Shown: positions 17,583-35,163, numbered from the stretch's first letter. The stretch: DNA of 64,000 bases from Candidatus Sericytochromatia bacterium (GCA_050248915.1 JBFWRL010000007.1:6084-70083), one strand, 5' to 3'. Numbers and translations are program-made. The notes: a model not told the origin generated them from the sequence alone.

Positions 17583-20180
17583 CTATAACTTTTGAATAGA
17601 ACGAGCCAAAAAAGGACGATCTGACTGAAAGTTTTGAATACTTTTACGCAAAACTTCATCGACAGTTTCTGTACGCCGCGTATCGAAGCCTGTTAATTGC
17701 TTTAAATGATACTCTGCATTGCGACGGATTTTTTCAACCTGTTGAGCCACCTGTGCTCGCTCCGTCTGGCGGGCATTCTGCTGTTCTGCCAACAATAGGT
17801 TGATTTGCTCCGTGGTTTTGAGAACCTGCTCTAACCACTTTTGGGTCGCTTGCTCAAGTTCTCGATTATCTGGGCGGGGGGATTGGCTCAAAAGGGCCTG
17901 GGCCTCATTGGCCTTGGCAATCAAAGCCTGAAGTTCCTCATCCAATTGCTGTTTCAGGGCTTCATTCAAGCTATCCGAAACAGCAAACAAATCAGCTATC
18001 AGAGACTGTAAATCTTGGGCCTGTTGTAACAAAAATGCGCTCAGTTGGGCCAGTAAATGGCCACGCATTAAACTCTCAGTGGCTTGACTGAGCGTCTCTT
18101 CTGCTTGGGCCAGAAGAGCGGGCAGCCGCTCAAAAATAGCATTGGCTTCACTGCGTAAATCACCAAGCAACTCGATGGGCAAGAGCCCTGCCAGATCCGG
18201 ATTCTGAGATACGTCTTCCAGTTCTGAATTGGCCTTTTTGAGGTCTTTCATTTTATCTTTAACAACAGACACAAGTTCTGCCTGTTCTTTCACACGGGCA
18301 TTTAAAGTCGCCGCTTCTTGATCAGCCTGGATTTGTAAGCGCGTCACCGTGGCCCCACTCGCCGCCAATTTTGCATCGAGTTCTTTTAACTTGGCTGCTT
18401 GGCCTTGTAAAGCGGCCTGAAAATAGTCCCCCAAAAGCTCAGGACCCACCGACTGCCCATTGCGCTTAAAGGTGGGTGAACCACTGCCGAGTTCAAGCGA
18501 AAGACCATATTCAGCCAATAGTTTATTCAGATCAGCCAATTTTTCAGCCGAACCAAATTGCTGTAAAAAGGAGGCATCCCATTGCCCCGATTTGGCTTGT
18601 TGGAGCAAGCTATTGAGCATCCGTTGTTTTTCGGCTTCCGCTTGCGCTTGTGCCGCAGCTTCTTGTTGTTGCTTTTGCGCCGCAGCCAAATCATCCAAGG
18701 TCTGATCATATTTGACCCGCAATTGCTGAATATCTGCATCATTGCGTTTGATTTCTTCTTCGAGCGCTTTTACCTCAGTCAACAAAAGTTGGTTTCTGGC
18801 CATCACCTCAAAGGCCTGGGCCAAACCTTCCACCTGTGTCAGGGTAAATCCTGACGCTCTGGGGTTTTGTATCCGCTGAATCAGTTGGGCAACTTGTTTT
18901 AATTGGCCCAAATCTTTGCTAGAAATCTCTTCTTTATTGGCCAAATTGTAGAGTTTGCCGTCCTGAAAACGCAATCCCAAGGTGCGCAAGAGTGCATTTT
19001 CTTGGTTGGACAGAGTCTGCCCTGGCTGCCCCAATTTATCTAAAATCGTGGCCAGTTGAGCCATTTCGGGCTTGTTGTAATTGCGCATAGCCTGAACCAA
19101 AACATAGCCCATTTTGGATTTAAGATCGAGATCTGCCACCACTCTTTGCTGAGTGTTCCCATCGATCAACACCGTGTTTGAGCCTGGGCCGCGTCCTTCA
19201 ACGATGCCCAAACGTACCTGCTCTTGAAAGAGTTTGGCCAGATCAGAGCCCTGATTGTGGATCAATCCGGTCAAGCCAGCAATATCACCATCTTCAAAAT
19301 TCAGACGCCGCAGCTCATTGTCATTCATTTTGAGCATTTGGTCATAAAATTGATTCCGATCGTTGACCAAAACAGCTTGGGGACTACTTGGCCCCCCCCC
19401 TTTGCTGGCGTTTGCTGGGGTTTTCGCCTGTTGCTCACTCCAAGCCTGATAGCCCCAGGTCACAGGACGCAATTCGGAAATAACCGCCGCTGAAAGCAGA
19501 GCCGGTCGCCGAGCCAAAGCGGGAACCTTTTCAAAAATAGCCTGCAGTTGGGCCTTGCTTGGACGCTCTTGGGTCGCAGTCAAAGTCTGAACCAGTTCAT
19601 TGACCGTGGCTTGGGCCAAAGCTGGGTTTTTCAGGTGTAGGCGCTGCAATTCATGGGTCATTTCACTTCTGAGCAGCTGCACCTGCACATCTTCAATCAG
19701 TTTGGGTTCGGGCACAGTGGCTGACAAGCGCTTTTGTTCTTCTGAATTCAGGGGTTTCTGCTGACGGACTTTTTCCATGATCTCCAAGAGCTGATCCACT
19801 TCTTCTGGCGATTTGCCCTGAATGGCATTGACCGTCTTTTGAATATGGGGCAGCCGGGCCCAATAGCTATCGATCTTAAAACTTTTACCCGCTTCCGCAG
19901 ACAGCGTTGTGTCGGAGCGATCCATTTTGGCCAAAGCCGCTTGGACCACATTTTCAACAGGTTCGCCTTTTTCCAATAAATTGATAGCCGCAACCACATC
20001 GGGATTGTCGAGGTTGGCAATAAAGGTCAGTTCGTCCTGGGTTGGGTTGGGCCCCAATTCCTGCCGCAGTTCATGCAGTTCTTTTGCGGTGACTTTGCCA
20101 TCATTTTTGAGCGCCTGATGGGCTTTTTGCAGCAGTTGAGAAGAAAGGGGGCCTGTGCCTGTGTGCTCAGAACGAATCAT
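17583..20180 (-). CDS. Large coiled-coil protein (865 aa), unknown function
   Basis: Long heptad-like Q/E/K/L-rich segments. No enzymatic motif. Confidence 0.5.
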   Translation of the reverse strand: MIRSEHTGTGPLSSQLLQKAHQALKNDGKVTAKELHELRQELGPNPTQDELTFIANLDNPDVVAAINLLEKGEPVENVVQAALAKMDRSDTTLSAEAGKSFKIDSYWARLPHIQKTVNAIQGKSPEEVDQLLEIMEKVRQQKPLNSEEQKRLSATVPEPKLIEDVQVQLLRSEMTHELQRLHLKNPALAQATVNELVQTLTATQERPSKAQLQAIFEKVPALARRPALLSAAVISELRPVTWGYQAWSEQQAKTPANASKGGGPSSPQAVLVNDRNQFYDQMLKMNDNELRRLNFEDGDIAGLTGLIHNQGSDLAKLFQEQVRLGIVEGRGPGSNTVLIDGNTQQRVVADLDLKSKMGYVLVQAMRNYNKPEMAQLATILDKLGQPGQTLSNQENALLRTLGLRFQDGKLYNLANKEEISSKDLGQLKQVAQLIQRIQNPRASGFTLTQVEGLAQAFEVMARNQLLLTEVKALEEEIKRNDADIQQLRVKYDQTLDDLAAAQKQQQEAAAQAQAEAEKQRMLNSLLQQAKSGQWDASFLQQFGSAEKLADLNKLLAEYGLSLELGSGSPTFKRNGQSVGPELLGDYFQAALQGQAAKLKELDAKLAASGATVTRLQIQADQEAATLNARVKEQAELVSVVKDKMKDLKKANSELEDVSQNPDLAGLLPIELLGDLRSEANAIFERLPALLAQAEETLSQATESLMRGHLLAQLSAFLLQQAQDLQSLIADLFAVSDSLNEALKQQLDEELQALIAKANEAQALLSQSPRPDNRELEQATQKWLEQVLKTTEQINLLLAEQQNARQTERAQVAQQVEKIRRNAEYHLKQLTGFDTRRTETVDEVLRKSIQNFQSDRPFLARSIQKL

Positions 20181-21402: not shown

Positions 21403-23892
21403 CTATTGGGGAATCCCACGTACTTGTGTCATGCCCTGCCCGCCATTGGCACTGTTTTGTGACCAAGTTGCGGGCTCAGAATCTACCACGGTATATGTGC
21501 CGGCGGGTAAGACTACATTGGGTTCAGTAAACCAATAGGCATTGGGTACCCCGCCCTGACCTGGGCGGGTACTCACAGCCCAGGGGCCGTAGAGTTTGCC
21601 ACTGCTATCTTTTAACCCAATTGTGCCACCGGGAGAACCTTGGGCATTGTTCCAGTGATAGGTCTGTAAAAAGGTGATTTTGCTGGCCTGGGCCAGGTTA
21701 AACTGGGTGGCCGAAGTCGGCAAATTAAACACAGCCAGGATATTGCCATTGTCGTAGAGCATCTGATCCTGTACGGTGGGCGTGGCTGAAGCCGTGGGCT
21801 GCGCATTGCCCAGATTGGGTCCGACCCAGAGCAATTCTTTGCCCTCGTTAACCACCATCAATAGGCGATCTCCAGTCGGACTAAAAGCCAAATAGCCAGG
21901 TTTGGGAACACCTGTGAGATAGGGAACCGGGGCAGAAAAAGTAGGCCCGCCTTTAATCACCTGATTCTGGCTTGGAGAACTCCAGTAAAGGGCCTTGTCA
22001 AACTGGCCACCCCCAGCAGCCAAACCACCAAAATTGGTGTCTTTTGCGGCCTCTGCGATCAATTTGGCTGCTCCATTGGGCTGTATCAGGTACACACCAG
22101 GGGTGCCGCCAAACGGCCAACCACCAGCACTGTTTAAGCCATAGAGTTCGTGGCGAGAATCGAGATAGGCCAGGGAAAACAGTCCAGGTGGAATTTCACT
22201 GTCGAGCAGCCCCACTTCTTGGTTGCTGCCAGCGGGTAAATACCAGACATTGTCATTTTCAAAATCGGCAAAATACCAACCCGCATCAGTGCTGGGGGCA
22301 TCGTTGAGCTGGAGGGGGGTCAGGCCCTTGCCGATCTGAACCAGATATTGACCATCACAGACCACGGTCAAATTGCCGGTTTGGGGATCAAAGCGCAATT
22401 CATTGGGTTTGGGCAGACCTTTGACCACCACCGTGGTGGTGCCATCAGCCGCAATTTTTAAGACATTGCCACTCTGGCGCTCCAGGGTATAGAGCCCGGC
22501 CCCATGTGGGCCTTTGTCGGTATAAGCCAAGCCATCCCAATCTTTGCCTTCGGGGGCCTGGGCATAGAGGCTGGCAATGCCCCCAGAGACCTGGTAAACG
22601 CCCCGTACGCCAGGGCCAGATCCCCACCAAGAGCCGGCTTCAATCCGGTTGAGGAAAAACAAGTTCTGATTGAGACTGTCATAAGCCAAAGAGGCCAGAG
22701 CTCCCGGTATTGGGCCTTTACTGGTATCCAGCATCCCCGTTTCTGCTGCCGTGGCATCGGGCTTAAACCAGACATTGTCGCTTTCAAAATCACTAAAATA
22801 CACGCCACCTTGGGGAGCGGGCAAAATATCGTGCAGACCATCGTGGGACAGGGTGTTTTTCCACTCTGTGACTGAACCATCGGCATTAAACTGGTAAATA
22901 CCCCGGGTTTGCACCCCGGCGGCAGGCGCATAGTCCATGCTCACAACGGGTGTTCCATTCACCACGGCTCCGTGCCGCCAAATCGGGCCCCGCAAGAGGT
23001 CATGGCTGGCATAAACTGAGCTTTTGCCCAGGGTATCCAATTTGATCAAGCTCTGACGATTGAGTGAACTGGTCATGGCATAAAGCGTGCCATCGGGGGC
23101 ATAAAAATGGGTCCCCAAAGGCCCCAGCGTATAATTTGAACGCAAAACCTGCATTTGCATCCCCGCAGGGATCTCAACCCCGGTCAACTCAGCGGGCATA
23201 AATAAATCTGTGCGGGGCATACGGGTAATCTCCTGGGTCCCCGCGTGATCTGCTTTGAGTTTGATCTGGCTGGAAGAGCCATCGGGGAGCAGTTTATAGA
23301 TACCGCCAAAGCTATTCCCGCCATCGGGCCAATAATCGATCGCAGCGATGTAGCCACTTCCGTCTTTTAAGGGCACAGCCCCTTTGCCGTTGATCCCTGC
23401 CAGCAAGTCGCCAGTGACCGCTGTTTTCCAACCACCACAGGCATCGGTACTGGCGATCTCCTTTTTGCTGCGATCAGAAGAAAAAACCTGGGCTTGCCCC
23501 TGATCATCAAAAAAGACATCTCCCACCTTAAAAGGCGTTTCATAGAGTCGCGCCATCATTCCTGCTGGCACATTCAGTCCTGTGGGCAAGGGCAACTCTT
23601 TTAAAACAGCTGTGCTGCCACAAGAGCCCACAGGGGCAGAAGAGGGCTCTAAACTGGGCAAAGGTGCAGGTGTTGCACTCTGGCCGGGTGCGGGTGGAAT
23701 CACTTGCGGGGCAGAAGCTGTCGCCAGGGGGGTTGGCGTGGCCGTCGCTGCGACTGTTGGGCTTGCGACAGGCAAAGCAGAGGGAACTGGGGCAGATGAG
23801 CTGGTTGGATTGGATGTAATGGGTGCAGGTCCGCAAGCTGTCAAACTCAAGGCCAACAGGGCAGATACCCGAAATTGAATGGATGTGTGCAT
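21403..23892 (-). CDS. Large lipoprotein (about 830 aa) with a Pro/Ala/Ser/Thr-rich linker and Gly/aromatic-rich beta-rich body
   Basis: Signal peptide and lipobox (ALSLTAC|G) start at the internal Met. A ~100-aa PAST-rich linker follows, then many G/Y/W-rich segments. The start is trimmed from 23970 to 23892. Confidence 0.55.
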   Translation of the reverse strand: MHTSIQFRVSALLALSLTACGPAPITSNPTSSSAPVPSALPVASPTVAATATPTPLATASAPQVIPPAPGQSATPAPLPSLEPSSAPVGSCGSTAVLKELPLPTGLNVPAGMMARLYETPFKVGDVFFDDQGQAQVFSSDRSKKEIASTDACGGWKTAVTGDLLAGINGKGAVPLKDGSGYIAAIDYWPDGGNSFGGIYKLLPDGSSSQIKLKADHAGTQEITRMPRTDLFMPAELTGVEIPAGMQMQVLRSNYTLGPLGTHFYAPDGTLYAMTSSLNRQSLIKLDTLGKSSVYASHDLLRGPIWRHGAVVNGTPVVSMDYAPAAGVQTRGIYQFNADGSVTEWKNTLSHDGLHDILPAPQGGVYFSDFESDNVWFKPDATAAETGMLDTSKGPIPGALASLAYDSLNQNLFFLNRIEAGSWWGSGPGVRGVYQVSGGIASLYAQAPEGKDWDGLAYTDKGPHGAGLYTLERQSGNVLKIAADGTTTVVVKGLPKPNELRFDPQTGNLTVVCDGQYLVQIGKGLTPLQLNDAPSTDAGWYFADFENDNVWYLPAGSNQEVGLLDSEIPPGLFSLAYLDSRHELYGLNSAGGWPFGGTPGVYLIQPNGAAKLIAEAAKDTNFGGLAAGGGQFDKALYWSSPSQNQVIKGGPTFSAPVPYLTGVPKPGYLAFSPTGDRLLMVVNEGKELLWVGPNLGNAQPTASATPTVQDQMLYDNGNILAVFNLPTSATQFNLAQASKITFLQTYHWNNAQGSPGGTIGLKDSSGKLYGPWAVSTRPGQGGVPNAYWFTEPNVVLPAGTYTVVDSEPATWSQNSANGGQGMTQVRGIPQ

Positions 23893-24063
23893 AAATGTCT
23901 CCCTAAAAATGGTTTCTAGTTCGAGTGTACGTAAAAAGCAGCCTCTGCCAAATGATCGGTATCGCCCCAATTATTGATTCCAATCAAAGATCTGAGAGAG
24001 CCATTCTTCCCTGCAGAGATTTGTTACAATGCTTGCAACACACATAGCAACAGGAAAAAAACC

Positions 24064-25830
24064 ATGCTGAGAAAAGTTTTGATTGCCAACCGGGGTGAAA
24101 TTGCGATTCGCATTCTCAGGGCCTGCCAAGAAATGGGCATTGCCACCGTGGCCGTTTATGCCGAAGACGACCGCCAGAGCAAACATGTGCGTCTGGCTGA
24201 TGAAGCCTTTCTCCTGCCCGGTAGCCAACTCAGCGAAACCTATTTAAATATTCCGGCCCTGATTAACATTGCCCAAAAATCCGGGGCCGAAGGCATTCAT
24301 CCCGGCTATGGATTTTTATCTGAAAATGCCGGATTTTCGTTGGCCTGTCGCGAAAATGGCATTGTCTTTATTGGCCCCAGCCCAGAGGTGATTGAAGCCA
24401 TGGGCAGCAAACTTCTGGCCCGCGAGCGCATGATGGCCGCAGGGGTGCCGATCACCCCTGGCAGTCCCAAGCTCAGCAGTTTGGCTGAGGCCCAAACCTG
24501 GGCGGATAAAATTGGCTATCCGCTGCTGCTCAAAGCCAGTGCTGGGGGTGGGGGCCGTGGCATGAAACGCGTCATGATGGCAGACGAATTGCCCAGTGCC
24601 TATGATGCAGCCCTGCGCGAGAGCAAAAGTTATTTCTCAGACGACACGGTCTATCTGGAAAAACTGGTCACCGCCCCGCGCCACGTCGAGGTGCAAATTT
24701 TGGCAGATACCCACGGCCACGTAATTCACCTGGGGGAACGCGACTGTTCGGTGCAGCGCCGCAACCAAAAGTTGATCGAAGAAACCCCAGCGCCCCACTT
24801 GCCTCCAGATGTGCGTCAAAAGCTGCTCGATGCGGCTGTGGCTGGTGCTCAGGCCATCGGTTATACGGGTGCAGGCACCTTTGAATTTGTGGTGCAAAAC
24901 AATACCGAGCCGTATTTTATGGAAGTGAATACCCGCCTGCAGGTCGAACATCCGATCACCGAAATGGTGACACGGGTCGATTTGGTCAAAGAGCAATTGC
25001 GAATTGCCTCAGGCCTGCCCCTGAGCTACTTGCAAGAGGAGATCCGCTTTGAAGGCCACGCCATTGAATGCCGCATCACCGTGGAAGATGCGTGCCAAAA
25101 CTTCCGACCTGTGCCCGGTTTAATTGGCAAATACGAAGAGCCTGCGGGTTTTGGTGTACGGGTCGACAGTATGCCTTACGCCGGTTATGAAATCCCACGC
25201 AGCTACGACTCACTCTTGGCCAAATTGGTCACCTGGGCACCGACACGGGCCGAGGCCCTGGCGCGCATGCAACGGGCCCTTAAAGAGTACACCATTGAAG
25301 GGGTCACCACCTTGATCCCCTTTTTCCAATGGGCCTTGGATGTGCCCGCGTTTGCCGAGGGCCATTATGACACTGGTTTTGTTGGCAAATACTTTGAACC
25401 CAGTCACTTGGCAACGGCACCCGCTCCCAGCAGAGAAGAAAGCGCTCCCCAACACCGCGAGGTAATTGATGTGGAGGTCAATGGTCGCTATTTTCAAGTC
25501 GCCCTGTATTTGCCCGAAGGTGCACTGCGCCCCGGCACAGGTGCAAACGCAGCAGCAGCTCATGCCCCCAAAGGTCCCGGCACCGGCAAAGGCAATCGCA
25601 AAGACAGCAGCAGCCAAAGTCAGGTGCCCGCGCCCATGGCCGGCACAGTGGTCAAAGTTGCCGTTGAAGCCGGCCAAAGTGTGGAAAGTGGTCAATTGCT
25701 CTGTATTATTGAATCCATGAAAATGGAAAATGATCTGCTCTCCCCCCGCAGCGGCAAACTCAAAACAGTGCCCATCCGGGCCGGTGAAAAAGTGCAAGCT
25801 GGGGCTGTACTCGTGGAGTTTGAGGCCTAA
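24064..25830 (+). CDS. Biotin-dependent acyl-CoA carboxylase alpha subunit (biotin carboxylase fused to biotinyl carrier domain)
   Basis: N-terminal MLRKVLIANRGEIAIRI, ATP-grasp motifs, C-terminal biotinylation motif IIESMKMEN. Start taken at ATG 24064; the ORF opens at 23974. Confidence 0.92.
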   Translation: MLRKVLIANRGEIAIRILRACQEMGIATVAVYAEDDRQSKHVRLADEAFLLPGSQLSETYLNIPALINIAQKSGAEGIHPGYGFLSENAGFSLACRENGIVFIGPSPEVIEAMGSKLLARERMMAAGVPITPGSPKLSSLAEAQTWADKIGYPLLLKASAGGGGRGMKRVMMADELPSAYDAALRESKSYFSDDTVYLEKLVTAPRHVEVQILADTHGHVIHLGERDCSVQRRNQKLIEETPAPHLPPDVRQKLLDAAVAGAQAIGYTGAGTFEFVVQNNTEPYFMEVNTRLQVEHPITEMVTRVDLVKEQLRIASGLPLSYLQEEIRFEGHAIECRITVEDACQNFRPVPGLIGKYEEPAGFGVRVDSMPYAGYEIPRSYDSLLAKLVTWAPTRAEALARMQRALKEYTIEGVTTLIPFFQWALDVPAFAEGHYDTGFVGKYFEPSHLATAPAPSREESAPQHREVIDVEVNGRYFQVALYLPEGALRPGTGANAAAAHAPKGPGTGKGNRKDSSSQSQVPAPMAGTVVKVAVEAGQSVESGQLLCIIESMKMENDLLSPRSGKLKTVPIRAGEKVQAGAVLVEFEA

Positions 25831-26435
25831 GCCAAAAAGGGCTGCAACAATGCCAAACAATCTGGCGGAATGCCCTTGCGCCAGGTATCGTGGCGCAATG
25901 AAGCTGCATGTTTGCCACTGTAAAAAGCGGTGTTTTCGCCGTCCAAACGCCCACAAATTTGGGTGAATTTGTCCTGTTGGGGATGCAGCACCAAATGCGG
26001 AAAGCCCTGCGGCAAGCGCAAAGCTTGCTCAAAAGGCTGGTCAGGCAGGCCACCTTTGGCCAGTTCGGCTTGCAAAGTCTGGGGTGAGACCCCATGGCAT
26101 TGTCCCAAATAAAAGAGCAAATCCATGGGCCGTTTGACAGGTGAGTCCAGTACCAGCCGCTCAATCAAGGGGTGCACCCCACTCAAGAGCACAGCCGAAA
26201 TACAGGCATAAGAGGCGGCCATCAGGGTCAGGCCTGGGCATTGCCAATACTGGGCGAGATATTCAAGCAAATACCAGAGCAATTGGGTCTCCAACACCCC
26301 TCCCCCCAAAAGGCGCTGGCCCTGGGGGTTGTGCCCACCCAAATAGGCAATCAAAAAACGGCCTTCGAGCCCACCGGCTTGCAAAGCGGCCAGCAAAGGC
26401 AACGCCGCTTCAGGTTTAGCGCGAAAACCTGGCAA
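25827..26435 (-). CDS. Hypothetical protein (202 aa)
   Basis: ORF tightly spaced (3 nt) with the upstream kinase-like gene. No motif. Confidence 0.4.
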   Translation of the reverse strand: MPGFRAKPEAALPLLAALQAGGLEGRFLIAYLGGHNPQGQRLLGGGVLETQLLWYLLEYLAQYWQCPGLTLMAASYACISAVLLSGVHPLIERLVLDSPVKRPMDLLFYLGQCHGVSPQTLQAELAKGGLPDQPFEQALRLPQGFPHLVLHPQQDKFTQICGRLDGENTAFYSGKHAASLRHDTWRKGIPPDCLALLQPFLA

Positions 26436-26438
26436 ATG

Positions 26439-27749
26439 CTAAATTGTGCGCTCAGCGTGACCAACCGAAACCACCAACAACTCCAAAAAAGCCCGTTCGG
26501 GCCAAGGCGAGAGCGAAAGTCGAAAGTGCGGCACCTGGCTGAGATAGGTCTCAGCAAAATGCAGGTCCAAGGGCAGGGGATCGTGGCAATAAATATCCGT
26601 GGGACGGTGCCCCCCTTCCGGCTGGGCCAGATCAGACCAATGGCGATAGGGCAAAACCTGCAAGCGAGCCGAAATTTGCAGAGGCTCGGCAGCATCAGAC
26701 TGCCAAGCAGCATTTAAACCTTGCTTGAGTCCATTTTGCAGGCAATCTTGTAAGGCCAAAGGACTGCTGCCTGCAGGCCAAACCTCAGGCAAAAGCAGGC
26801 CAGATGTTTGTTTTGTGACTTGCTGGGCCAAAGCCCTCAGAAGCGGATTTTGCCCGCGCAGGGGACGGGTATAATCCGCAGCGGTTTCGAGCTCTAAGCT
26901 GGCCCCAGCAGGGCTTGATTCAATGCGAAAAAGCAGATCGGCCTGAGGCCCCTCCAGGGTCTGGGCAAAAAAAGGCAGGGGTTCAGCATCAACGGGCAGC
27001 CAGGTCAAAAGTGGTTCCAAAAAAACCTGGTGCAAAACCTGCAGGCTGGGTTCGGGTAAGTTCAACGACAAAACCGAAGGCCTGGATTCAGTTTGTTTCA
27101 GTTTGGGACTGAAATAAGCCAGATATTGCTGCCAATCGGGCTTTAACAATAATTCAGCATAGGGGCTGGGCTGAATTTTGGGGCCTGTATCCAAGAGACA
27201 AAAATGGGTCTGCTGCCAAAGCAAATTTTTGGGTGAGAGATCGAGCAGATAGCCCTTGCTGTAATAAAAATCTGCCGCTTGGCCGAGCATCTTCTCAACC
27301 GCGGCAGTCATCACAGGCGTAGCTGCCTCTGTCATCAAAAGGGCTTGCAGCGTCGGGCCAGCCTCCCAGCTTTTGAGCAGGGCTGTTTCTGACTGGGCCA
27401 CAACAGCAGCAACAGCCCACCCCGCCTGCTGTAAAAGGCGTGTCACTTCGGCCTCTGTGGCCAAGAGTTGGCGCAAAAACGCCACCGAAGCCCGAATTTG
27501 TTTGAGGGCATAATTTTGCTCCCCGTCTAAAGCCTGCACACGATAGACCGAGCCAATCAATCCGGCGCCAGCAAATGCCAGCACACGATAGAGCTGCTCA
27601 GCGACAGGCAAACATGTGCCCACAGGCAATACAACCGATGCCGCCAATAATTGTTGCTTGAGCCGGGGGCTCTTGACCACGGCACTGAGCAGCCCCAATT
27701 GTTCGCTTGAAAGTGTTAAAAAAGCCTTTTGCACAGAGCAAGCTCCCAA
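26439..27749 (-). CDS. Protein-kinase-fold (eukaryotic-like kinase) domain protein with an unknown ~230-aa C-terminal domain
   Basis: Ordered motifs: Gly-loop AFAGAGLIGSVYRV, VAIK-like YALKQI, catalytic-loop-like LLDLSPKNLLW, DFG-like LLDTGP. Spacings match the protein kinase fold. Confidence 0.55.
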   Translation of the reverse strand: MGACSVQKAFLTLSSEQLGLLSAVVKSPRLKQQLLAASVVLPVGTCLPVAEQLYRVLAFAGAGLIGSVYRVQALDGEQNYALKQIRASVAFLRQLLATEAEVTRLLQQAGWAVAAVVAQSETALLKSWEAGPTLQALLMTEAATPVMTAAVEKMLGQAADFYYSKGYLLDLSPKNLLWQQTHFCLLDTGPKIQPSPYAELLLKPDWQQYLAYFSPKLKQTESRPSVLSLNLPEPSLQVLHQVFLEPLLTWLPVDAEPLPFFAQTLEGPQADLLFRIESSPAGASLELETAADYTRPLRGQNPLLRALAQQVTKQTSGLLLPEVWPAGSSPLALQDCLQNGLKQGLNAAWQSDAAEPLQISARLQVLPYRHWSDLAQPEGGHRPTDIYCHDPLPLDLHFAETYLSQVPHFRLSLSPWPERAFLELLVVSVGHAERTI

Positions 27750-27764
27750 AGGAGCATCGGCAAC

Positions 27765-28214
27765 TTAGAGCAGGGCTTTGCGCAGGCGTTTAACGGCATG
27801 TTCCATCTCGACCAGGGCTTCGATGGACTTGACCACAGAAGCATCTACAGCGAGAATCTGGGCCATTTTTTGCACCGCATCTTTTTCTGCTTGGGCATAG
27901 TGGCCATCAGCCCGACTGATTTCAATGGCATCACGAATCAGCATCCGGGCACGTTTGCCCCCTTTGGTAAAGTCGGGCAAAAGGGCTTCCAATGTGGTCG
28001 AAGCGGGATCAAACTCGGTGATGGCCTGAACAGCATCTGCCGAGGCGCCTACCCGTTTCATGCCTTTGAGCAGCGCTTGCCACTCGCTTTCAGCAATTTC
28101 ACCATCAGCGGCAATCACACATTTGAGGGCCTTGAGATAGTTCAAAGCCTGTTCATAGGACTTGGGCTGTTTGCCATAGCGCTGTTCTACGGCTTGGGCA
28201 TTGTACTGACTCAT
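27765..28214 (-). CDS. TerB-like (tellurite-resistance TerB / DUF533-type) domain protein
   Basis: Helical 149-aa protein with the DGxxxxxE...DG pattern (AADGEIAESEW; RADGHYAQAEKDAV) of the TerB family. Confidence 0.5.
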   Translation of the reverse strand: MSQYNAQAVEQRYGKQPKSYEQALNYLKALKCVIAADGEIAESEWQALLKGMKRVGASADAVQAITEFDPASTTLEALLPDFTKGGKRARMLIRDAIEISRADGHYAQAEKDAVQKMAQILAVDASVVKSIEALVEMEHAVKRLRKALL

Positions 28215-28346: not shown

Positions 28347-30944
28347 ATGAAGCCAAAACACACGAGGAGACAGACAGCCACTATGGGAGATATTAAGCGC
28401 CTGGGAAGCGGTTTTGCCCTCTCTTCCTCTTCGCCCATTTTCCGCGGCTCACTCTCCATGCCCAAGATGACAGTGGGTCAGATCGACATGCCGTCGATCT
28501 CACAGAAACATGTTTTAGAAAATATCGACAGCCAACAAAGAGCGGTGGCCCAGGCCATTGATCAATCGGTCAAAAGTGTCAGTCAGGCCTTTCAGAGCAG
28601 TAGCCAATTTTCAATCAAAACAGCAGATGGCCGCAGTGTTCCTGCTGCCCGCTTTCTCTCTCCCGATGAACTCAAACAATTGGAACGTTTGCCGCCCCAC
28701 TTGCAACGTCAGATCTTGGATGTCAGCTCTGTGCGTGGCAGCAATAATTCCCAGATTCAAGCCCAACTCAGCAAAAATATCAAAGCCGTGATCACAGGTA
28801 TTGCCGAAGTCCAGGAATTAAAATTCAGCGGCAAAGACGGCAGAGATTGGACTGTTCGCAATTTGCTTGATCTGGCCAATGCCGTCAATCAAATGCCGAT
28901 CAGCCACCGCCAGCAATTGGAGGGAGTCAACTTTATCCGAGATGATGAACCCGATCTGGGCTACAAGGATCACACTCCCGACCTGCTCGAAAAAATGGCC
29001 AATAAAATGGTGGCCGGGCATTATGATTTAAGCTCTCGTTCTGTGATTCTCTATGATCGTGGCATACAAGATAGTTTTCCTGTTTTAGACGCCGATTTGC
29101 AGCAAAATTTACGCGCCATTTCAGCCCACGCCTGTGACTCCTGCAGTGCTCCCAAATTAGATGCAGAGGTACAACAGGGCTTGAAGGCCTTACAAGGCAA
29201 AGCAAGCCCCAAAGATGTGGCCAGCTTACAAAAATTACTCAATCCCTTTTTGGCCCAGCTCAACCGACCGATGATTCATGAAAATGGCCAGTGGGGCCCG
29301 CCGACCGAAACAGCCGTGCGCACCGTTCAGGCCCATTTGCTGGACAAATACCTACAAAACAATTTTCGCTTAAACCCCGCTCAAAAACAGGAATTGCAGC
29401 AACTCCAACAATTGGCCAGCTCTCCCCAATTTGGCATGATTACCCGTGTAGTGAGTTTAAAAGACAAAATGCAAAATCTCAGTCAGATACCCGATCCACA
29501 GGTTCAAAAATTGCTGGCAGAATTGGCCAATAGTGAATTTGGCAATGTCTCCACCCAATTTTTGCTCAGGGATATTTCCGATGCCTCCCGCTCCAATCGA
29601 CATGTGACCCGCACCGAAGAAGTGATGATCCATGAAATGGGTCACCATATCCAAATGGGTCTCTCAAATGAAAATGAGTATATTGCCGAATTCAGCAAAC
29701 TTTCAGGCTGGGTCAAGCGCGAGAGTGGTGAAGTCGCTGATGGCTATGTCAACGGCATGATGAGCTCCGAAAACGTGGCAGATGTCTATAACCAACTCGC
29801 TTCAAACGGCCAGATCGACGAAGGGCTTTATACAGCCAAACTCAGCCCCCAAGAGCGCAACCAGGTCTTTGTCACCAGTTATGCCGCCACAGATCCTATG
29901 GAAGACTTTGCCGAATCGTATAAAACATTTGTGCTCGATCCTGTCAGTTTGATTGAAGCCTCGCCTGAGAAATTCTTTTTTATTAACTCCCTGCCCACCC
30001 TGCAAAATCACAAGGTGGGGGGCGGCATCAAACAAAGGGTTCACTATACCGAAGAGCAAATTCGCCCCTTTGTCACAGCCGCTTTGCGCAATCAATACCG
30101 CTTTGAACCCAGCAAGATCAATGTCGATACTTTTATCCGTGAACATTTTGAAAATATCGTGGGTGCGGGCAATTCGCGTCGCCCCTTGCACCTCTCTTCG
30201 GATACCATCCTGGCTGTTTTGGATACCCATGAGGGCCTGCTCAAGTCTTTAAATTTGGAACATTTGAGCCCCCCCCAACGCGCAGGGGCCCGAGATCCCG
30301 ATTTTGCCGTCTTGCAAGAAATCCATCGAAAAACACAGAGTTTGATTGTCTCCAAAGGCAGTGCACGTGAGGCCCAGGCGTTTTTCCGTTCGTTTACCAA
30401 TGCCAATGAAATTGAAACGCGTTTTCCCAAGGCCTCAGCCGATTTAAAAGCCAATCTCAAAGACCAAAACTTTGCGGCAATGATGTTGGCGATGGGCAAA
30501 ATTAGCGGATATGCCGCGATGCTCAATCAGGCCAAAAACGTCGATTTTCAAGATAATCAGACCTACAAAGACGCCAAAGATTATTTTTCGACCGCTTTCA
30601 AACAGCCCTCAGCCCTGCTCAGCCGTCAGGTATTGACCCAGGGCTATAACCTGCTGCGTGGGGTGAGCAGCAATTGGGTCAATCCAGAAGATCGCAAGAT
30701 TGATCCCGCCCGCGCATTTTTTCAGACCCTTGAGGCAGATCCTGCAGAGGCCTTTCCCGAAGGCTGGTACCTCTTTCCCGATGAATTTAAAGAGATGTTG
30801 CAAAACAAACGTTTTCTTCAAGCTATCTCGGGCGATTCCGGTCGCTACCAACCCTCCCCCGAGGTGATTCACCAAACCCTCGAAAAAATTGTGGAGATGA
30901 TTGAATTTAAACGCGGCCTGGATGAAATGCTCAACGGCGGTTAA
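28347..30944 (+). CDS. Large zincin-like metallopeptidase-domain protein (865 aa), effector-like
   Basis: HEMGHH (HExxH) at aa 429-433. An acidic EDFAESY segment lies ~90 aa downstream. Long non-catalytic N- and C-terminal regions. A GAGGAG Shine-Dalgarno before the ATG at 28383 suggests the true start is there. Confidence 0.6.
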   Translation: MKPKHTRRQTATMGDIKRLGSGFALSSSSPIFRGSLSMPKMTVGQIDMPSISQKHVLENIDSQQRAVAQAIDQSVKSVSQAFQSSSQFSIKTADGRSVPAARFLSPDELKQLERLPPHLQRQILDVSSVRGSNNSQIQAQLSKNIKAVITGIAEVQELKFSGKDGRDWTVRNLLDLANAVNQMPISHRQQLEGVNFIRDDEPDLGYKDHTPDLLEKMANKMVAGHYDLSSRSVILYDRGIQDSFPVLDADLQQNLRAISAHACDSCSAPKLDAEVQQGLKALQGKASPKDVASLQKLLNPFLAQLNRPMIHENGQWGPPTETAVRTVQAHLLDKYLQNNFRLNPAQKQELQQLQQLASSPQFGMITRVVSLKDKMQNLSQIPDPQVQKLLAELANSEFGNVSTQFLLRDISDASRSNRHVTRTEEVMIHEMGHHIQMGLSNENEYIAEFSKLSGWVKRESGEVADGYVNGMMSSENVADVYNQLASNGQIDEGLYTAKLSPQERNQVFVTSYAATDPMEDFAESYKTFVLDPVSLIEASPEKFFFINSLPTLQNHKVGGGIKQRVHYTEEQIRPFVTAALRNQYRFEPSKINVDTFIREHFENIVGAGNSRRPLHLSSDTILAVLDTHEGLLKSLNLEHLSPPQRAGARDPDFAVLQEIHRKTQSLIVSKGSAREAQAFFRSFTNANEIETRFPKASADLKANLKDQNFAAMMLAMGKISGYAAMLNQAKNVDFQDNQTYKDAKDYFSTAFKQPSALLSRQVLTQGYNLLRGVSSNWVNPEDRKIDPARAFFQTLEADPAEAFPEGWYLFPDEFKEMLQNKRFLQAISGDSGRYQPSPEVIHQTLEKIVEMIEFKRGLDEMLNGG

Positions 30945-30961: not shown

Positions 30962-31189
30962 CTAATTTCTGAGACTCAGGGCAGGGGCCACTTCGGGCTC
31001 GGCCCGCAGTGGAATTTGGCGACGCGCCAGCAGACACTGCAGTTGAAAAGGGCTCAGCCCCGTCATGGCCATGATTTGGCGCAAATTCAAGCGCTTCTGT
31101 TCGTAGAGCATCAGGGTGATTTCAAGACTCAGCTCTTCTTCAGTCATTCCCAGGGTCTTGAGTGTGGCATCTGAGATATGTAGACTCAT
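30962..31189 (-). CDS. UPF0175-family small protein (antitoxin-like)
   Basis: 75 aa, with ...LNLRQIMAMTGLSPFQLQCLLARRQIPL helix-turn-helix-like C-terminus typical of UPF0175. Confidence 0.5.
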   Translation of the reverse strand: MSLHISDATLKTLGMTEEELSLEITLMLYEQKRLNLRQIMAMTGLSPFQLQCLLARRQIPLRAEPEVAPALSLRN

Positions 31190-31262: not shown

Positions 31263-33704
31263 TTATAACATGCTATAGGGGTCAATATCTACGACCAAAC
31301 GCTGAACCTCTGATGCGTACTGGCGACTGAGCTTGTGCAAGAGCGCACGCAAGGCCTGTAATTCAGGAATTTTTAAGAGCAATTGCACCAAAAACAAACT
31401 CCGAATCCGCTCAATCGGTGCAGGACTCGGCCCCAAAATTTGTAAATCGGCCGGCCCACGCTGGCGCAAATCTGTTGCAAAGGCCTGGGCCACCTGCAGC
31501 GCCAATTCCTGACGGGGATGAACAAAGATCAGGCGTACGAGCGAGCCAAAAGGCGGGTAGTGTAAGTCCTGGCGGTGCAATAATTCGTCTTGGGCAAAAG
31601 CCGCATAATCATGGTTGATCGCATGGCGAATGGCCATATGTTCGGGCGCATAGGTCTGCAAATAGACACGAGCCGGCAAATCCCCCCGGCCCCCCCGCCC
31701 GGCGGCCTGGGTTAAGAGCTGAAAGGTGCGCTCAGCAGCCCGAAAATCGGGCAGATTTAAGGCCAAATCTGCCACCATCAGGCCGACCACCGTCACTTTG
31801 GGGAAATCCAGCCCCTTGGCCACCATCTGGGTGCCGATCATAATATTGGCCCGGCCAGAGCCAAATTCATCCAAGAGCGCCAAATGCGCGTGTTTGGCAC
31901 TGGTGGTATCGCGATCCAAACGCACTGTGCGTGCGCCAGGAAAGAGCTTGTGGGTGAGCTCTTCGAGTTTTTGGGTGCCCAGGCCAAAACTGCGAATGGC
32001 ATCACTTTGGCAGTGGGGACATTTTTTCGGTGGTGGGCAGTGATAATCACAATAATGGCATTTGAGCCGCTCATCGCTGCGGTGATAAGTCAAACTCACC
32101 GCACAGAGCGGGCAATGCAAGGTCTCGCCACAGCTGCGACAGAGCACGGTGGCAGCGTAGCCCCGGCGATTGAGCAGCAGAATGATCTGTTCTTCACGTT
32201 TGAGTGCCTCTTCGATGGCCAGCTTGAGCGGCGGGCTAAAAGCGGTGGCCTTGCCCTCGTAATTGCGCATATCCACCACACTGACCGGTGGCAGAGGCTG
32301 CGAATGAACGCGGTTGGGCATTTGCAAATAGGGATAATCGCCCTGAATCGCGCGGTAATAGCTCTCCAGCCGGGGTGTGGCGCTGCCGAGCAAAACCAGC
32401 CCCTTGTTCAGCCAGGCCCGGCCCAAGGCCAAGGTCCGGGCATCATAGCGCAGGCCGTTGTCCTGTTTAAAGCTGGATTCATGCTCTTCGTCGATCACGA
32501 TCAGACGCAGATTTTTGACCGGCGCAAAAATCGCCGAACGGGCCCCCACCACAATCGGCGCCTCGCCATCGCGGATCCGCTCCCATTCGTCGAGATACTC
32601 CCCTTCGCCCAGACCACTGTGTAAAATGGCCACCTGCTCGCCAAAGAAGCCACGCAGGCGCATCAGCATCATCGGCGTCAGCGATATTTCGGGCAGCAAA
32701 AATATACAGCCCCCATCTTGCTCCACGACCCGCGCCATGGTGTGCATATAGACTTCGGTTTTGCCGGAACCTGTCACCCCATGTAAAAGTGCCACGGGCT
32801 CGGGCTGGGGTGGGTTTTCCAATGCGGCAAGCAATTGCTCTAAAACGGCCTCTTGATCGGCAGTCAGGGTCGGGCGCTTTTGCGGTTCACTCGACAGCGA
32901 TGACAGGGGAATGCGGCGCAGCCGGGCATTGGAGATATCCACAGCGCCTTTTTCTTCGAGTTTGTTGATCGTGACGGTATTGGTCTCGGCCTGCTCACAG
33001 AGCTCGGTGAGGGTCAAATAGCCCCCGGCCTGACGCAAGGTGCGCAAGACCCCTGATTGTCGAGGCGTGAGGCCTGTGGGCTCTTTGAGATAACTGACAA
33101 AGAGCTGGGTGCGGGGCTGGACCTTGGGGCGCATTTCGTCGTAAATTTCAATCAATTGCTGCTGACGCAGGGTGTCGAGCCAGCCCTGTAAACGGTTGCC
33201 AAATTTGCGTTTGCAGCCCGTAAAGGTCTTCCAACTGGGGGCCGAGGCGATCAGGTATTTGCCAAAATCCACCAAATCGGGCTGCAAGACAAACTCACTT
33301 TCCAAGCGGGCCACAAATTCAGCCACAGGCAAAGTCGGGGCGATCAGACGGCGAATTGAGCCGGTCAATTGTCGGGGCAGGGCCGTGGCCAAAACCTGGC
33401 TAAGCGAACAGAGGTAATACTGGGCAATCCAGTGCAGCCATTTGAGAAATTTGGGCTCTAATAATTGCTGCTGAGAGAGACTCTGCAAGGGGCGGGCCCG
33501 CATCGCAGGTGGGCTTTGATGCAAGCGCACAACAAACCCCATGCGCAGCCGTGAACCAAAAGGCACGGTGGCCTGCTGCCCCAAACCAATTTGTTTGCGC
33601 AGGCTCTCAGGCACACTATAGGTATAAACTTCCCGTTCCACGTGGGCGGGCAGATCTTCGATCAAGACATCGGCAAAGAGGGGAGACGAAACTAAAGCAT
33701 GCAT
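31263..33704 (-). CDS. priA: Primosomal protein N' (PriA) replication restart helicase
   Basis: Walker A LLHGVTGSGKTEVY, DEEH box, Cys4-Cys4 zinc-binding insertion (CRSCGETLHCPLC...CHYCDYHCPPPKKCPHCQS), 813 aa. Confidence 0.93.
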   Translation of the reverse strand: MHALVSSPLFADVLIEDLPAHVEREVYTYSVPESLRKQIGLGQQATVPFGSRLRMGFVVRLHQSPPAMRARPLQSLSQQQLLEPKFLKWLHWIAQYYLCSLSQVLATALPRQLTGSIRRLIAPTLPVAEFVARLESEFVLQPDLVDFGKYLIASAPSWKTFTGCKRKFGNRLQGWLDTLRQQQLIEIYDEMRPKVQPRTQLFVSYLKEPTGLTPRQSGVLRTLRQAGGYLTLTELCEQAETNTVTINKLEEKGAVDISNARLRRIPLSSLSSEPQKRPTLTADQEAVLEQLLAALENPPQPEPVALLHGVTGSGKTEVYMHTMARVVEQDGGCIFLLPEISLTPMMLMRLRGFFGEQVAILHSGLGEGEYLDEWERIRDGEAPIVVGARSAIFAPVKNLRLIVIDEEHESSFKQDNGLRYDARTLALGRAWLNKGLVLLGSATPRLESYYRAIQGDYPYLQMPNRVHSQPLPPVSVVDMRNYEGKATAFSPPLKLAIEEALKREEQIILLLNRRGYAATVLCRSCGETLHCPLCAVSLTYHRSDERLKCHYCDYHCPPPKKCPHCQSDAIRSFGLGTQKLEELTHKLFPGARTVRLDRDTTSAKHAHLALLDEFGSGRANIMIGTQMVAKGLDFPKVTVVGLMVADLALNLPDFRAAERTFQLLTQAAGRGGRGDLPARVYLQTYAPEHMAIRHAINHDYAAFAQDELLHRQDLHYPPFGSLVRLIFVHPRQELALQVAQAFATDLRQRGPADLQILGPSPAPIERIRSLFLVQLLLKIPELQALRALLHKLSRQYASEVQRLVVDIDPYSML

Positions 33705-33945: not shown

Positions 33946-35163
33946 ATGACCGGAAGTGTACAATTCTCCAACCAACAGTGGCTCGTTCGTTCTCTGGATA
34001 AAAATAACAATAACGTGATGGATGAACTCAAACTTGATCCCCGCGTCAAAGACAAAGTTGACACAGATAAAAATGGCGAAGTCAGCCGCAATGAATTGAC
34101 CTCCGCCCTGCAGTCCGACGCCGTGGAAATTAACCAAGGCGTGATCACCGAAAGCAAAGGCATTCAGATCTACACCAAAGGTCTCGAAACTCTGAAAAAC
34201 GTTCACACCACCGCCAGCAATTCTTGGGGCCACGTCTTCACCCCCAGCTTCTTTCAAGATGATACCCTGGGTGAGCGCTACAACAAACTCGTCGACAGCA
34301 ACCGCGCTTATACCTCCGCCATCGATCGCCAAGAATCTGCGCTGCGCTCCATTCGCGATATGACCGCCAATGCCCCTGATGCCACCTCCCGCGCTCTGCA
34401 TATTCAAGCCGATACCACCCTGCGCAGCGCCAGCTGGCGGACCTGGACAGGCACTTTCCAGAATCTGCTCGCCATGGGCAATAGCTCCGATGAGCACACC
34501 GTGCGTCAGATGGAAATGGCCAATACCAATTTCCAAGCCGCTTTTGAAACCCTCAACAACACCATGCGCTCGATCGCCGACCAGACCAAAAATCTGCCCG
34601 ACGTGCAGGCCGCTTTAAAAGCCACCGACAATTCCATTTCCAAAGCCTTTAGCAATATCACCCAGATTGAAAACGCCAGCATTTCTGCTCAAGATGTGGG
34701 CAGCAAACTCGACAAATTGGCCGACGAAACCCAGGCCAAAGCTACTGGCCGTACGACTCCCTTTGCTTTGACCGGTGCTGGGATTGGCGCGGTTGCTGGT
34801 GCAGCCATCGGCTTCTTCGCTGGTGGTAAAACTATCAAAGCCGCTGGCTTTGGGGCTGGGATTGGCTTGGCCGCCTCTGCAGGCATCGGCGCTATGATTG
34901 GCAGCAGCATCGACAGCAAGTACAAAGGGGCTGCCGACGACCTGCGCAACCTCTCCAGCGAAGTGCGCAGCTACAACCCTGCTGCCGAAAAAGGCAAGCT
35001 GCTGGATGAAACCCAGAAAACCTACGGCGCCATGCTCGAAGCCCGTGAGCACCACGATCTGGACAATGCCCAGGTCAGCGCCAATAATTTCCGCAGCATC
35101 CAGAGCCGCGTGGCTCCTGTTGAAAAACAATCCGAGCGCATTCTCGGAGCGTACAAAAAGTAA
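33946..35163 (+). CDS. Hypothetical protein with an EF-hand-like Ca-binding loop and a C-terminal glycine-zipper membrane segment
   Basis: DTDKNGEVSRNEL fits the EF-hand loop DxDxNGxISxxE. C-terminal TGAGIGAVAGAAIGFFAGG...GFGAGIGLAASAGIGAMIG is a glycine zipper. Confidence 0.5.
   Translation: MTGSVQFSNQQWLVRSLDKNNNNVMDELKLDPRVKDKVDTDKNGEVSRNELTSALQSDAVEINQGVITESKGIQIYTKGLETLKNVHTTASNSWGHVFTPSFFQDDTLGERYNKLVDSNRAYTSAIDRQESALRSIRDMTANAPDATSRALHIQADTTLRSASWRTWTGTFQNLLAMGNSSDEHTVRQMEMANTNFQAAFETLNNTMRSIADQTKNLPDVQAALKATDNSISKAFSNITQIENASISAQDVGSKLDKLADETQAKATGRTTPFALTGAGIGAVAGAAIGFFAGGKTIKAAGFGAGIGLAASAGIGAMIGSSIDSKYKGAADDLRNLSSEVRSYNPAAEKGKLLDETQKTYGAMLEAREHHDLDNAQVSANNFRSIQSRVAPVEKQSERILGAYKK

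Follow-up and report, generated by a model that had tools for sequence, protein, structure and literature searches.

A 64,000-nucleotide stretch of DNA from a Candidatus Sericytochromatia bacterium (GCA_050248915.1 JBFWRL010000007.1:6084-70083; the whole stretch is called the window here) almost certainly contains a two-gene operon, in which the gene for a small TerB-family protein is followed by one large gene for an enzyme that fuses a protein-kinase-like domain to an alpha/beta hydrolase. The locus looked like three genes because a single in-frame stop codon cuts the enzyme gene in two. The reading that probably explains the locus best as a whole combines this two-gene operon, the fused enzyme, a stop that is either very recent or an assembly error, and a proposed control of the enzyme by its TerB neighbor. 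The first-pass annotation of the window had described a TerB-like protein, a protein-kinase-fold protein of 436 amino acids (aa) and, 3 nucleotides (nt) further on, a separate 202-aa protein; the hydrolase domain, the stop codon and an alternative potassium-channel partner were not part of that account. The genes of the operon, and the open reading frames (ORFs) from which they were assembled, are as follows:

27765-28214, minus strand: TerB-family ORF, 149 aa (ORF call)
26439-27749, minus strand: 436-aa ORF, counted from the first TTG (ORF call)
25827-26435, minus strand: 202-aa ORF (ORF call)
25827-27734, minus strand: single gene for the kinase-like/alpha-beta-hydrolase fusion, ~635 aa on readthrough, interrupted by TAG in the window
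26439-26441, minus strand: in-frame TAG that splits the gene, replacing TTG (Leu) in hydrolase strand beta3

The 436-aa and 202-aa ORFs share one reading frame, with only the TAG and a CAT codon between them, and positions 2-436 of the family hidden Markov model (HMM) fall on the first ORF and positions 439-640 on the second. All seven homologues from the first search were single proteins of 630-673 aa covering both ORFs (the closest 93% identical), each of the homologues P0002-P0024 was likewise one protein (610-673 aa), and every further locus fetched, including 12 from species genomes and 12 from metagenomes, was unsplit across the junction. No naturally split two-gene version was found, in that none of the other related loci (more than 30 overall) was split at the window's junction. 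A candidate split gene in L020 was rejected, as the gene 3' of the kinase-only gene at that locus encodes an unrelated secreted AXE1-type esterase and not the missing domain. The 202-aa ORF is thus not a gene of its own, and the three-gene operon of the first-pass annotation gives way to two genes: the third ORF is the C-terminal alpha/beta-hydrolase part of the enzyme, cut off by a stop that only this genome carries.

The most likely start codon of the enzyme is a GTG (27734) preceded by a GGGAG Shine-Dalgarno sequence. The resulting 431-aa product is on record at NCBI as MGE3724438.1 ("hypothetical protein", from a Candidatus Sericytochromatia metagenome-assembled genome, MAG); this entry and the ORF that follows it should be joined and flagged as one interrupted gene. 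The ATG of the TerB gene is preceded by a AAAGGTGG ribosome-binding site. At the other end of the operon (25827-25870), the last 11 codons of the enzyme gene read DCLALLQPFLA in the window and DCLDALLQFLA in close relatives, a codon-level shift with one codon lost and one gained while the frame is kept.

The TAG lies two residues ahead of PGFRA, an invariant motif of the hydrolase domain. In DNA alignments of the junction with L007, L001, L009 and L010, the window reads ACA ATT TAG CAT TTG (T-I-stop-H-L) where its 93%-identical relative L007 reads ACA TTT TTG CTT TTG (T-F-L-L-L), which amounts to three T-to-A differences within 8 nt; all other members have four hydrophobic residues at this point, followed by the invariant PGFRA. 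Between the window and L007, the ratio of nonsynonymous to synonymous substitution rates (dN/dS) was 0.126 before the stop and 0.132 after it. Given that these values are alike on both sides, the 3' part is not drifting, and the interruption either arose very recently, by nonsense mutation, or is an error in the assembly of the MAG; an independent assembly of the same strain by which to judge it was sought, and none was on record. Stop-codon reassignment or readthrough was ruled out, since TAG serves as an ordinary stop for other genes in the window and also at the end of the enzyme gene itself. Taken at face value, the sequence would yield a crippled hydrolase alongside an intact kinase unit similar to natural stand-alone forms, with the predicted 431-aa product retaining the whole kinase unit without a functional hydrolase.

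It is possible, and compatible with the other readings considered below, that the gene is a decaying pseudogene in this genome only and the operon a relic, although we regard this as a tentative alternative. Next to the TAG, in a buried beta-strand, a Leu has changed to His; the 202-aa ORF has no good ribosome-binding site ahead of its TTG when the sequence is read directly; and the window copy is the only interrupted one among more than 30. However, dN/dS is the same on either side of the stop (0.13) and no further frameshifts or stops were found, so any inactivation would be very recent or an assembly artefact. In addition, neither the kinase unit nor the TerB gene is damaged, and kinase-only forms exist in nature.

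The small cytosolic protein encoded ahead of the enzyme is a full-length TerB domain. Its 149-aa ORF matched the Pfam family TerB (PF05099) with E=6.4e-9 (36.6 bits, cutoff 24.4), and a profile built from the protein and its orthologues found, in the PDB, 2OU3 (COG3793 TerB, E=1.4e-13) and Klebsiella TerB 2JXU (E=3.1e-4), in agreement with the TerB-like protein first noticed upstream on the same strand. Both D-G-x5-E motifs of the family (PF05099/COG3793; 2OU3, 2JXU) are present:

28083-28106 and 27885-27908, minus strand: the two D-G-x5-E motifs of the TerB protein (sequence)

The TerB gene lies directly upstream of the enzyme gene, on the same strand and 10-90 nt off, in the window and in 19 of 19 loci of the first two sets, and is also directly upstream in L020, L024, L032, L033 and L037. 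These TerB-linked loci, of which about 20 are distinct, come from Sericytochromatia/Blackallbacteria, Myxococcota (Archangium, Sorangium, Polyangiaceae), one Acidobacteriota MAG and unassigned metagenome contigs, and their surroundings are otherwise unrelated. The pairing suspected from the window alone is therefore co-conserved in other genomes, across three phyla and in otherwise unrelated contexts, with the supposed third gene being part of the enzyme. Between phyla, Myxococcota included, the TerB partner is 49-59% identical, compared with about 33% for the enzyme. All-against-all clustering of neighboring ORFs recovered only the TerB and kinase-hydrolase genes and no third conserved gene, the rest being antisense shadow ORFs. 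The TerB protein is a dedicated, conserved upstream partner of the kinase-hydrolase gene, and its subfamily comprises about 90 clusters that are mostly tied to this gene. In one long-read MAG of the Polyangiaceae (L019 5350-5909), the TerB gene appears frameshifted: the N-terminal half of TerB is in frame with the kinase-hydrolase ORF and the C-terminal half is in another frame, likely due to an assembly indel.

The kinase-like core of the enzyme was delimited as follows:

27090-27632, minus strand: protein-kinase-like catalytic core, residues ~35-215 (motifs, Foldseek, profiles)
27543-27569, minus strand: G-loop GAGLIGSVY, residues 56-64 (motif)
within 27495-27512, minus strand: beta3 Lys in YALKQI, residues 75-80 (motif)
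within 27444-27458, minus strand: alphaC Glu (motif)
27225-27242, minus strand: catalytic loop DLSPKN, residues 165-170 (motif)
27177-27191, minus strand: DTGPK, with DTG at residues 182-184 (motif)

The motifs on which the first-pass annotation had based its kinase call (GAGLIGSVY, YALKQI, DLSPKN and DTG) are indeed present in the 436-aa ORF in canonical kinase order and spacing. They are not a matter of chance: 23 full-length members, with no more than 28-50% identity among them, all have the catalytic residues G56, G58, K78, E94, D165, K169, N170 and D182. A search of the PDB with the family profile matched CaMK1G (E=1.7e-7) as well as twitchin and DAPKs, with the G-loop, Lys, Glu, catalytic loop and DFG aligned. 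Foldseek against the PDB returned PknI (E=3.3e-7), Rv3910, TTK and GAK (E about 3e-7) with probability 1.0 and a template-modelling score, TM(target), of 0.4-0.5; with a better model, viral kinases matched too. Six of the 23 members matched Pfam Pkinase (PF00069) at E<=0.01 (best E=2.7e-7), and the Pfam gathering score of 31.7 was not reached by the window protein (12.6 bits) or by P0002 (19.3 bits). Structure prediction, profile search and these sub-threshold matches agree on a kinase fold, and neither the HMM search nor the structure prediction gave an unrelated one.

Several features of the core are atypical. The family has LLDLSPKN instead of HRDLKPEN, with LLD in place of HRD and the catalytic-loop Lys at D+4, and the DFG position reads D[TA]G. 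Only 17 residues separate D182 from the invariant W201 and the next conserved helix, the APE motif is absent, the canonical alphaF-alphaI substrate-binding lobe is not recognizable, and profile alignments to kinases stop at ~position 185. Judged by these motifs, the core is an atypical protein-kinase-like domain with all catalytic residues kept and almost no activation segment, and kinase activity is predicted for it. RIO-type, Bud32-type and small-molecule kinases have the same build, with a short segment and no APE, and the RIO catalytic loop, D-L-S-E-Y-N, resembles the D-L-S-x-x-N of this family. Weak matches to RIO1 (PF01163; E 0.008-0.015) were also obtained, and an activation loop is absent from this family as it is from RIO/Bud32 kinases. 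However, these matches are sub-threshold and weaker than those to Pkinase, and the family lacks both the N-terminal winged helix of RIO proteins and any ribosome-biogenesis context, so that membership of the RIO/Bud32 group is not supported.

The remainder of the enzyme, which begins with an N-terminal helical extension as the first of its four parts, lies downstream of the core:

26667-27089, minus strand: family-specific extension and variable linker, residues ~216-356 (no Pfam/PDB match)
27066-27086, minus strand: invariant SRPSVLS (extension)
26988-27002, minus strand: WLPVD (extension)
25830-26666, minus strand: alpha/beta-hydrolase domain, residues ~357-635 (triad, fold; stop-interrupted)
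26418-26432, minus strand: PGFRA (hydrolase motif)
26205-26219, minus strand: nucleophile elbow AASYA (hydrolase motif)
25965-25979, minus strand: acid Asp in QQDKF (hydrolase motif)
25899-25916, minus strand: His in GKHAAS (hydrolase motif)
25887-25895, minus strand: RHD (hydrolase motif)

What had been taken for a ~230-aa domain of unknown function resolves into the family-specific extension, the linker and the first third of the hydrolase domain. The extension, which had no match in Pfam or PDB profile searches, holds invariant S-x-P-S and W-x-P-x-D motifs within residues ~216-310, and up to ~position 310 it accompanies the kinase core in natural stand-alone genes of ~330 aa. In our reading, residues ~216-310 stand in for the usual substrate-binding lobe in this family. 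An earlier AlphaFold2 model from 7 sequences was poor in residues 215-361 and was superseded by a model from 23 sequences (predicted local distance difference test, pLDDT, 88; predicted template-modelling score, pTM, 0.90), in which beta-strands 233-271 of the extension are predicted with good confidence. In this model, the kinase and hydrolase chain is predicted to form one compact unit.

The C-terminal part is, by motif and model, a predicted Ser-Asp-His alpha/beta hydrolase of the esterase/lipase type. Across the 23 members, S513, D535, D593, H614 and R619-H620-D621 (P0002 numbering) are invariant, S513 lying in a nucleophile elbow of the form AAS(Y/H)(A/G). The model has the eight-stranded alpha/beta-hydrolase fold, in which S513 follows strand 507-512 (beta5) at a helix start, D593 follows strand 585-590 (beta7) and H614 follows strand 607-610 (beta8); the triad was placed from the secondary-structure order of the model, not from its coordinates. 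Five of the 23 members matched Pfam Abhydrolase_1, all below threshold, and the closest structural matches were esterases, monoacylglycerol lipases and a phospholipase A1 toxin domain. Compared with known hydrolases of this type (Pf2001 esterase of P. furiosus, monoacylglycerol lipases and the Vibrio MARTX ABH domain), the family is 10-16% identical and below the Pfam threshold, and differs in an unusual PGFRA in the oxyanion region, an invariant R-H-D after the catalytic His and a covalently attached kinase. The window copy differs further in its stop codon: here the domain is not uninterrupted, as TAG replaces the beta3 Leu.

The family is rare, with 12 loci in 185,579 species genomes. When 1.84 billion representative proteins were searched exhaustively with the profile, only ~24 full-length relatives (E<1e-140) and ~10 shorter ones came up. 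The next matches, from E=4.5e-16 on, were generic Ser/Thr kinases aligned over positions ~49-185 only; a profile search with word-indexed protein search added no relatives. Six metagenomic full-length genes lack TerB and form, in a rough neighbor-joining tree, one clade nested among the TerB-linked genes. In this clade, a conserved gene 3-30 nt upstream on the same strand encodes a potassium channel whose filter reads TTIGYGD (Ion_trans_2) and which carries a TrkA_N/RCK domain:

L030 4819-5928 and L031 4886-5935, and also upstream of the match in L025, L026, L027/L028 and L029, same strand as the kinase-hydrolase gene: K+ channel gene

A complete kinase-only relative of 333 aa without TerB was found in L021 (1-6002; the same in L022), directly behind a gene for a CDP-alcohol phosphatidyltransferase-like membrane protein. 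The cluster also encodes a CdsA-like CTP transferase, a 3beta-HSD/epimerase and a FAAL-PP-aminotransferase, which is a lipid-biosynthesis context. Proteins of the ODP type (PF19583, di-iron) and PF00756 esterases recur a few kb from the module in unrelated contexts (L002 4539-5714; L004 10062-10784 and 3958-4983; L003 2562-3839), a recurrence that may be due to chance.

We propose that the TerB protein would act as a sensory or regulatory subunit of the kinase-hydrolase, and that the substrate of the enzyme under its control would be a lipid or small molecule, not a protein. The literature describes TerB as amphitropic and as a candidate sensor of membrane state or metals, no mechanism having been established; for TerB domains, binding of metal ions and movement between the cytoplasm and the membrane have been suggested. 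The RCK-gated potassium channel that occupies the operon slot of TerB in one clade would couple the enzyme to ionic or membrane state, and the swap suggests that this state is the input or the regulated thing. Three features tilt the choice of substrate toward a lipid or small molecule: the activation segment is missing, the hydrolase is esterase/lipase-like, and one relative sits in a lipid cluster. Our working proposal, a possible one that we put forward tentatively, is that TerB is an ion- or membrane-state-sensing partner controlling a bifunctional kinase/esterase that acts on a lipid or small molecule.

Several findings weigh against this proposal. The nearest relatives of the kinase core, by both sequence and structure, are protein Ser/Thr kinases and not lipid kinases, and because of this the inference of a lipid or small-molecule substrate is weak. 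The lipid-cluster context is known from one locus only. Finally, another Sericytochromatia MAG encodes a TerB paralogue (L036 5001-5453, 47% identical) with no kinase-hydrolase gene within 5 kb of it; such TerB proteins are therefore not strictly dedicated, and the subfamily of ~90 clusters may contain an unlinked sub-branch. A narrower version, in which TerB is a cytosolic Ca2+/metal or membrane-state sensor that allosterically gates a new kinase/lipase class and is interchangeable with the RCK-gated channel, seems to us unlikely. If true, it would make the operon a new ion-coupled membrane-remodelling or abortive-defence module and give TerB a concrete biochemical role.

The kinship with protein kinases leads to a different reading, in which the core would be a conventional Hanks-type Ser/Thr protein kinase that phosphorylates proteins, possibly TerB or its own hydrolase, and thereby switches the hydrolase output. 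The family shares with Hanks-type kinases, such as PknI and the kinase-homology domain of Rv3910, the bilobal fold, Gly-rich loop, beta3 Lys, alphaC Glu, catalytic Asp/Asn and DFG-like Asp. Its closest sequence and fold relatives are PknI, Rv3910, CaMK and DAPK, its catalytic residues are complete, one homologue carries the NCBI label "serine/threonine protein kinase", and the predicted model packs kinase and hydrolase into a single compact body (pTM 0.90). However, the activation segment, APE and alphaF-alphaI lobe expected of such a kinase are unrecognizable, kinase alignments end near 185, LLD stands for HRD with the catalytic Lys shifted to D+4, and the window protein falls short of the Pfam Pkinase gathering score (12.6 vs 31.7 bits). 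Instead of recognizable C-lobe helices, the family has its own extension, and it is fused to an alpha/beta hydrolase. We consider a conventional protein kinase improbable here.

The first-pass annotation had also linked the TerB gene to stress or phage-response cassettes. The corresponding reading is an anti-phage module of the abortive-infection type, in which TerB would survey the membrane or sense infection, the kinase would transduce the signal and the hydrolase would be a phospholipase-like killing effector. In its favor, the three validated defence systems Bunzi, Shango and Dionysus contain TerB domains, and the hydrolase is similar to the phospholipase domain ABH of MARTX. The module is also patchy across phyla with varied contexts and a swapped partner, and a truncated copy would suit the frequent decay of costly defence genes. 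PADLOC gave domain-level matches for the three ORFs (TerB to PDC-S48, E=1.2e-4, and BnzA, E=8.9e-4; kinase to PD-T4-6, E=0.015), all of them weak. This is nevertheless the least probable of the readings considered, given that PADLOC returned no significant system-level match, that ten immediate neighbors from five contexts matched no defence model apart from one weak domain match, that the Sericytochromatia copies sit in conserved PriA-biotin carboxylase synteny (75-93% identical), that no mobile-element signature and no full-length viral relative were found, and that purifying selection is strong. The stress or phage-cassette suggestion thus finds no contextual support around the operon, with no defence genes among the neighbors, no system match and a stable synteny in Sericytochromatia. 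A phage origin was likewise rejected, as searches of BFVD gave domain-level matches only and no full-length viral relative.

The combination of TerB with a kinase-hydrolase does not correspond to any of the known TerB or kinase systems with which we compared it. The ter (terZABCDE) tellurite-resistance operon was rejected: no terZ/A/C/D/E/F genes lie nearby, the genes lying up to about 8 kb away, in the window as well as in L001-L007, include no TerA/C/D/Z families, and the TerB protein of the window belongs to a distinct subfamily. Bunzi, Shango and Dionysus likewise place a TerB-domain protein beside enzymatic or effector partners, and TerB has been proposed as a membrane-surveillance sensor in these systems. 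In contrast to them, the window locus has no helicase/ATPase (Shango), no transmembrane/lipid-binding BnzA architecture and no pore-forming DinC; the partner is a kinase-hydrolase, the PADLOC matches are at the domain level only and the neighbors are without defence models, so identity with any of the three was rejected. The TerY-P triad reportedly consists of the vWA protein TerY, a PP2C phosphatase and a Ser/Thr kinase; with no vWA or PP2C Pfam families in the annotated contexts of the family loci, and hence none adjoining the kinase, this candidate was dismissed as well.

We found no description of the TerB/kinase-hydrolase pairing, or of the kinase-hydrolase fusion, in the searchable literature, in line with the first-pass statement that TerB/kinase pairings are not a described system. 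The parts come from known superfamilies, and the module they form is rare, conserved and uncharacterized. TerB is widespread and linked to tellurite resistance, stress and several phage-defence systems, while its molecular function is still enigmatic. Here it appears in its simplest setting, as a stand-alone 150-aa protein with one enzymatic partner, in at least three phyla and with an RCK potassium channel in its place in one clade. The operon therefore offers a clean two-protein system for direct tests of TerB ligand and output. The fusion of a kinase with a serine hydrolase, outside any Pfam family, adds an unusual architecture to the bacterial repertoire of eukaryote-like kinases.

In the window and its close relatives, the operon stands between a divergent gene for a ~860-aa HExxH protein, with PriA beyond it, and a convergent gene for a biotin carboxylase with a biotin carboxyl carrier protein (BCCP) domain, a synteny kept at 75-93% identity:

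28347-30944, plus strand: 865-aa protein with an HEMGH zinc-metallopeptidase motif, divergent from the TerB gene; weak sub-threshold matches to Peptidase_Mx/Mx1
30962-31189, minus strand: small UPF0175 (antitoxin-like) protein, 75 aa, between the 865-aa gene and PriA
31263-33704, minus strand: PriA (window)
23974-25830, plus strand: biotin carboxylase fused to a biotinyl/lipoyl carrier domain, converging on the kinase-hydrolase gene

The 865-aa HEMGH protein is syntenic in L001 and L007 and absent from other lineages. The stop codons of the biotin carboxylase and kinase-hydrolase genes overlap by 4 nt (25827-25830), and no convincing terminator was found between these genes. A promoter and terminator scan did no better than on shuffled sequences, and Rfam found no riboswitch or other RNA at E<=1 in the leader or region. 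Further away, three large ORFs of the window (17583-20180, 21403-23970 and 33946-35163; 865, 855 and 405 aa), which have no Pfam family or only faint EF-hand/coiled-coil signals, are conserved in related Sericytochromatia contigs.

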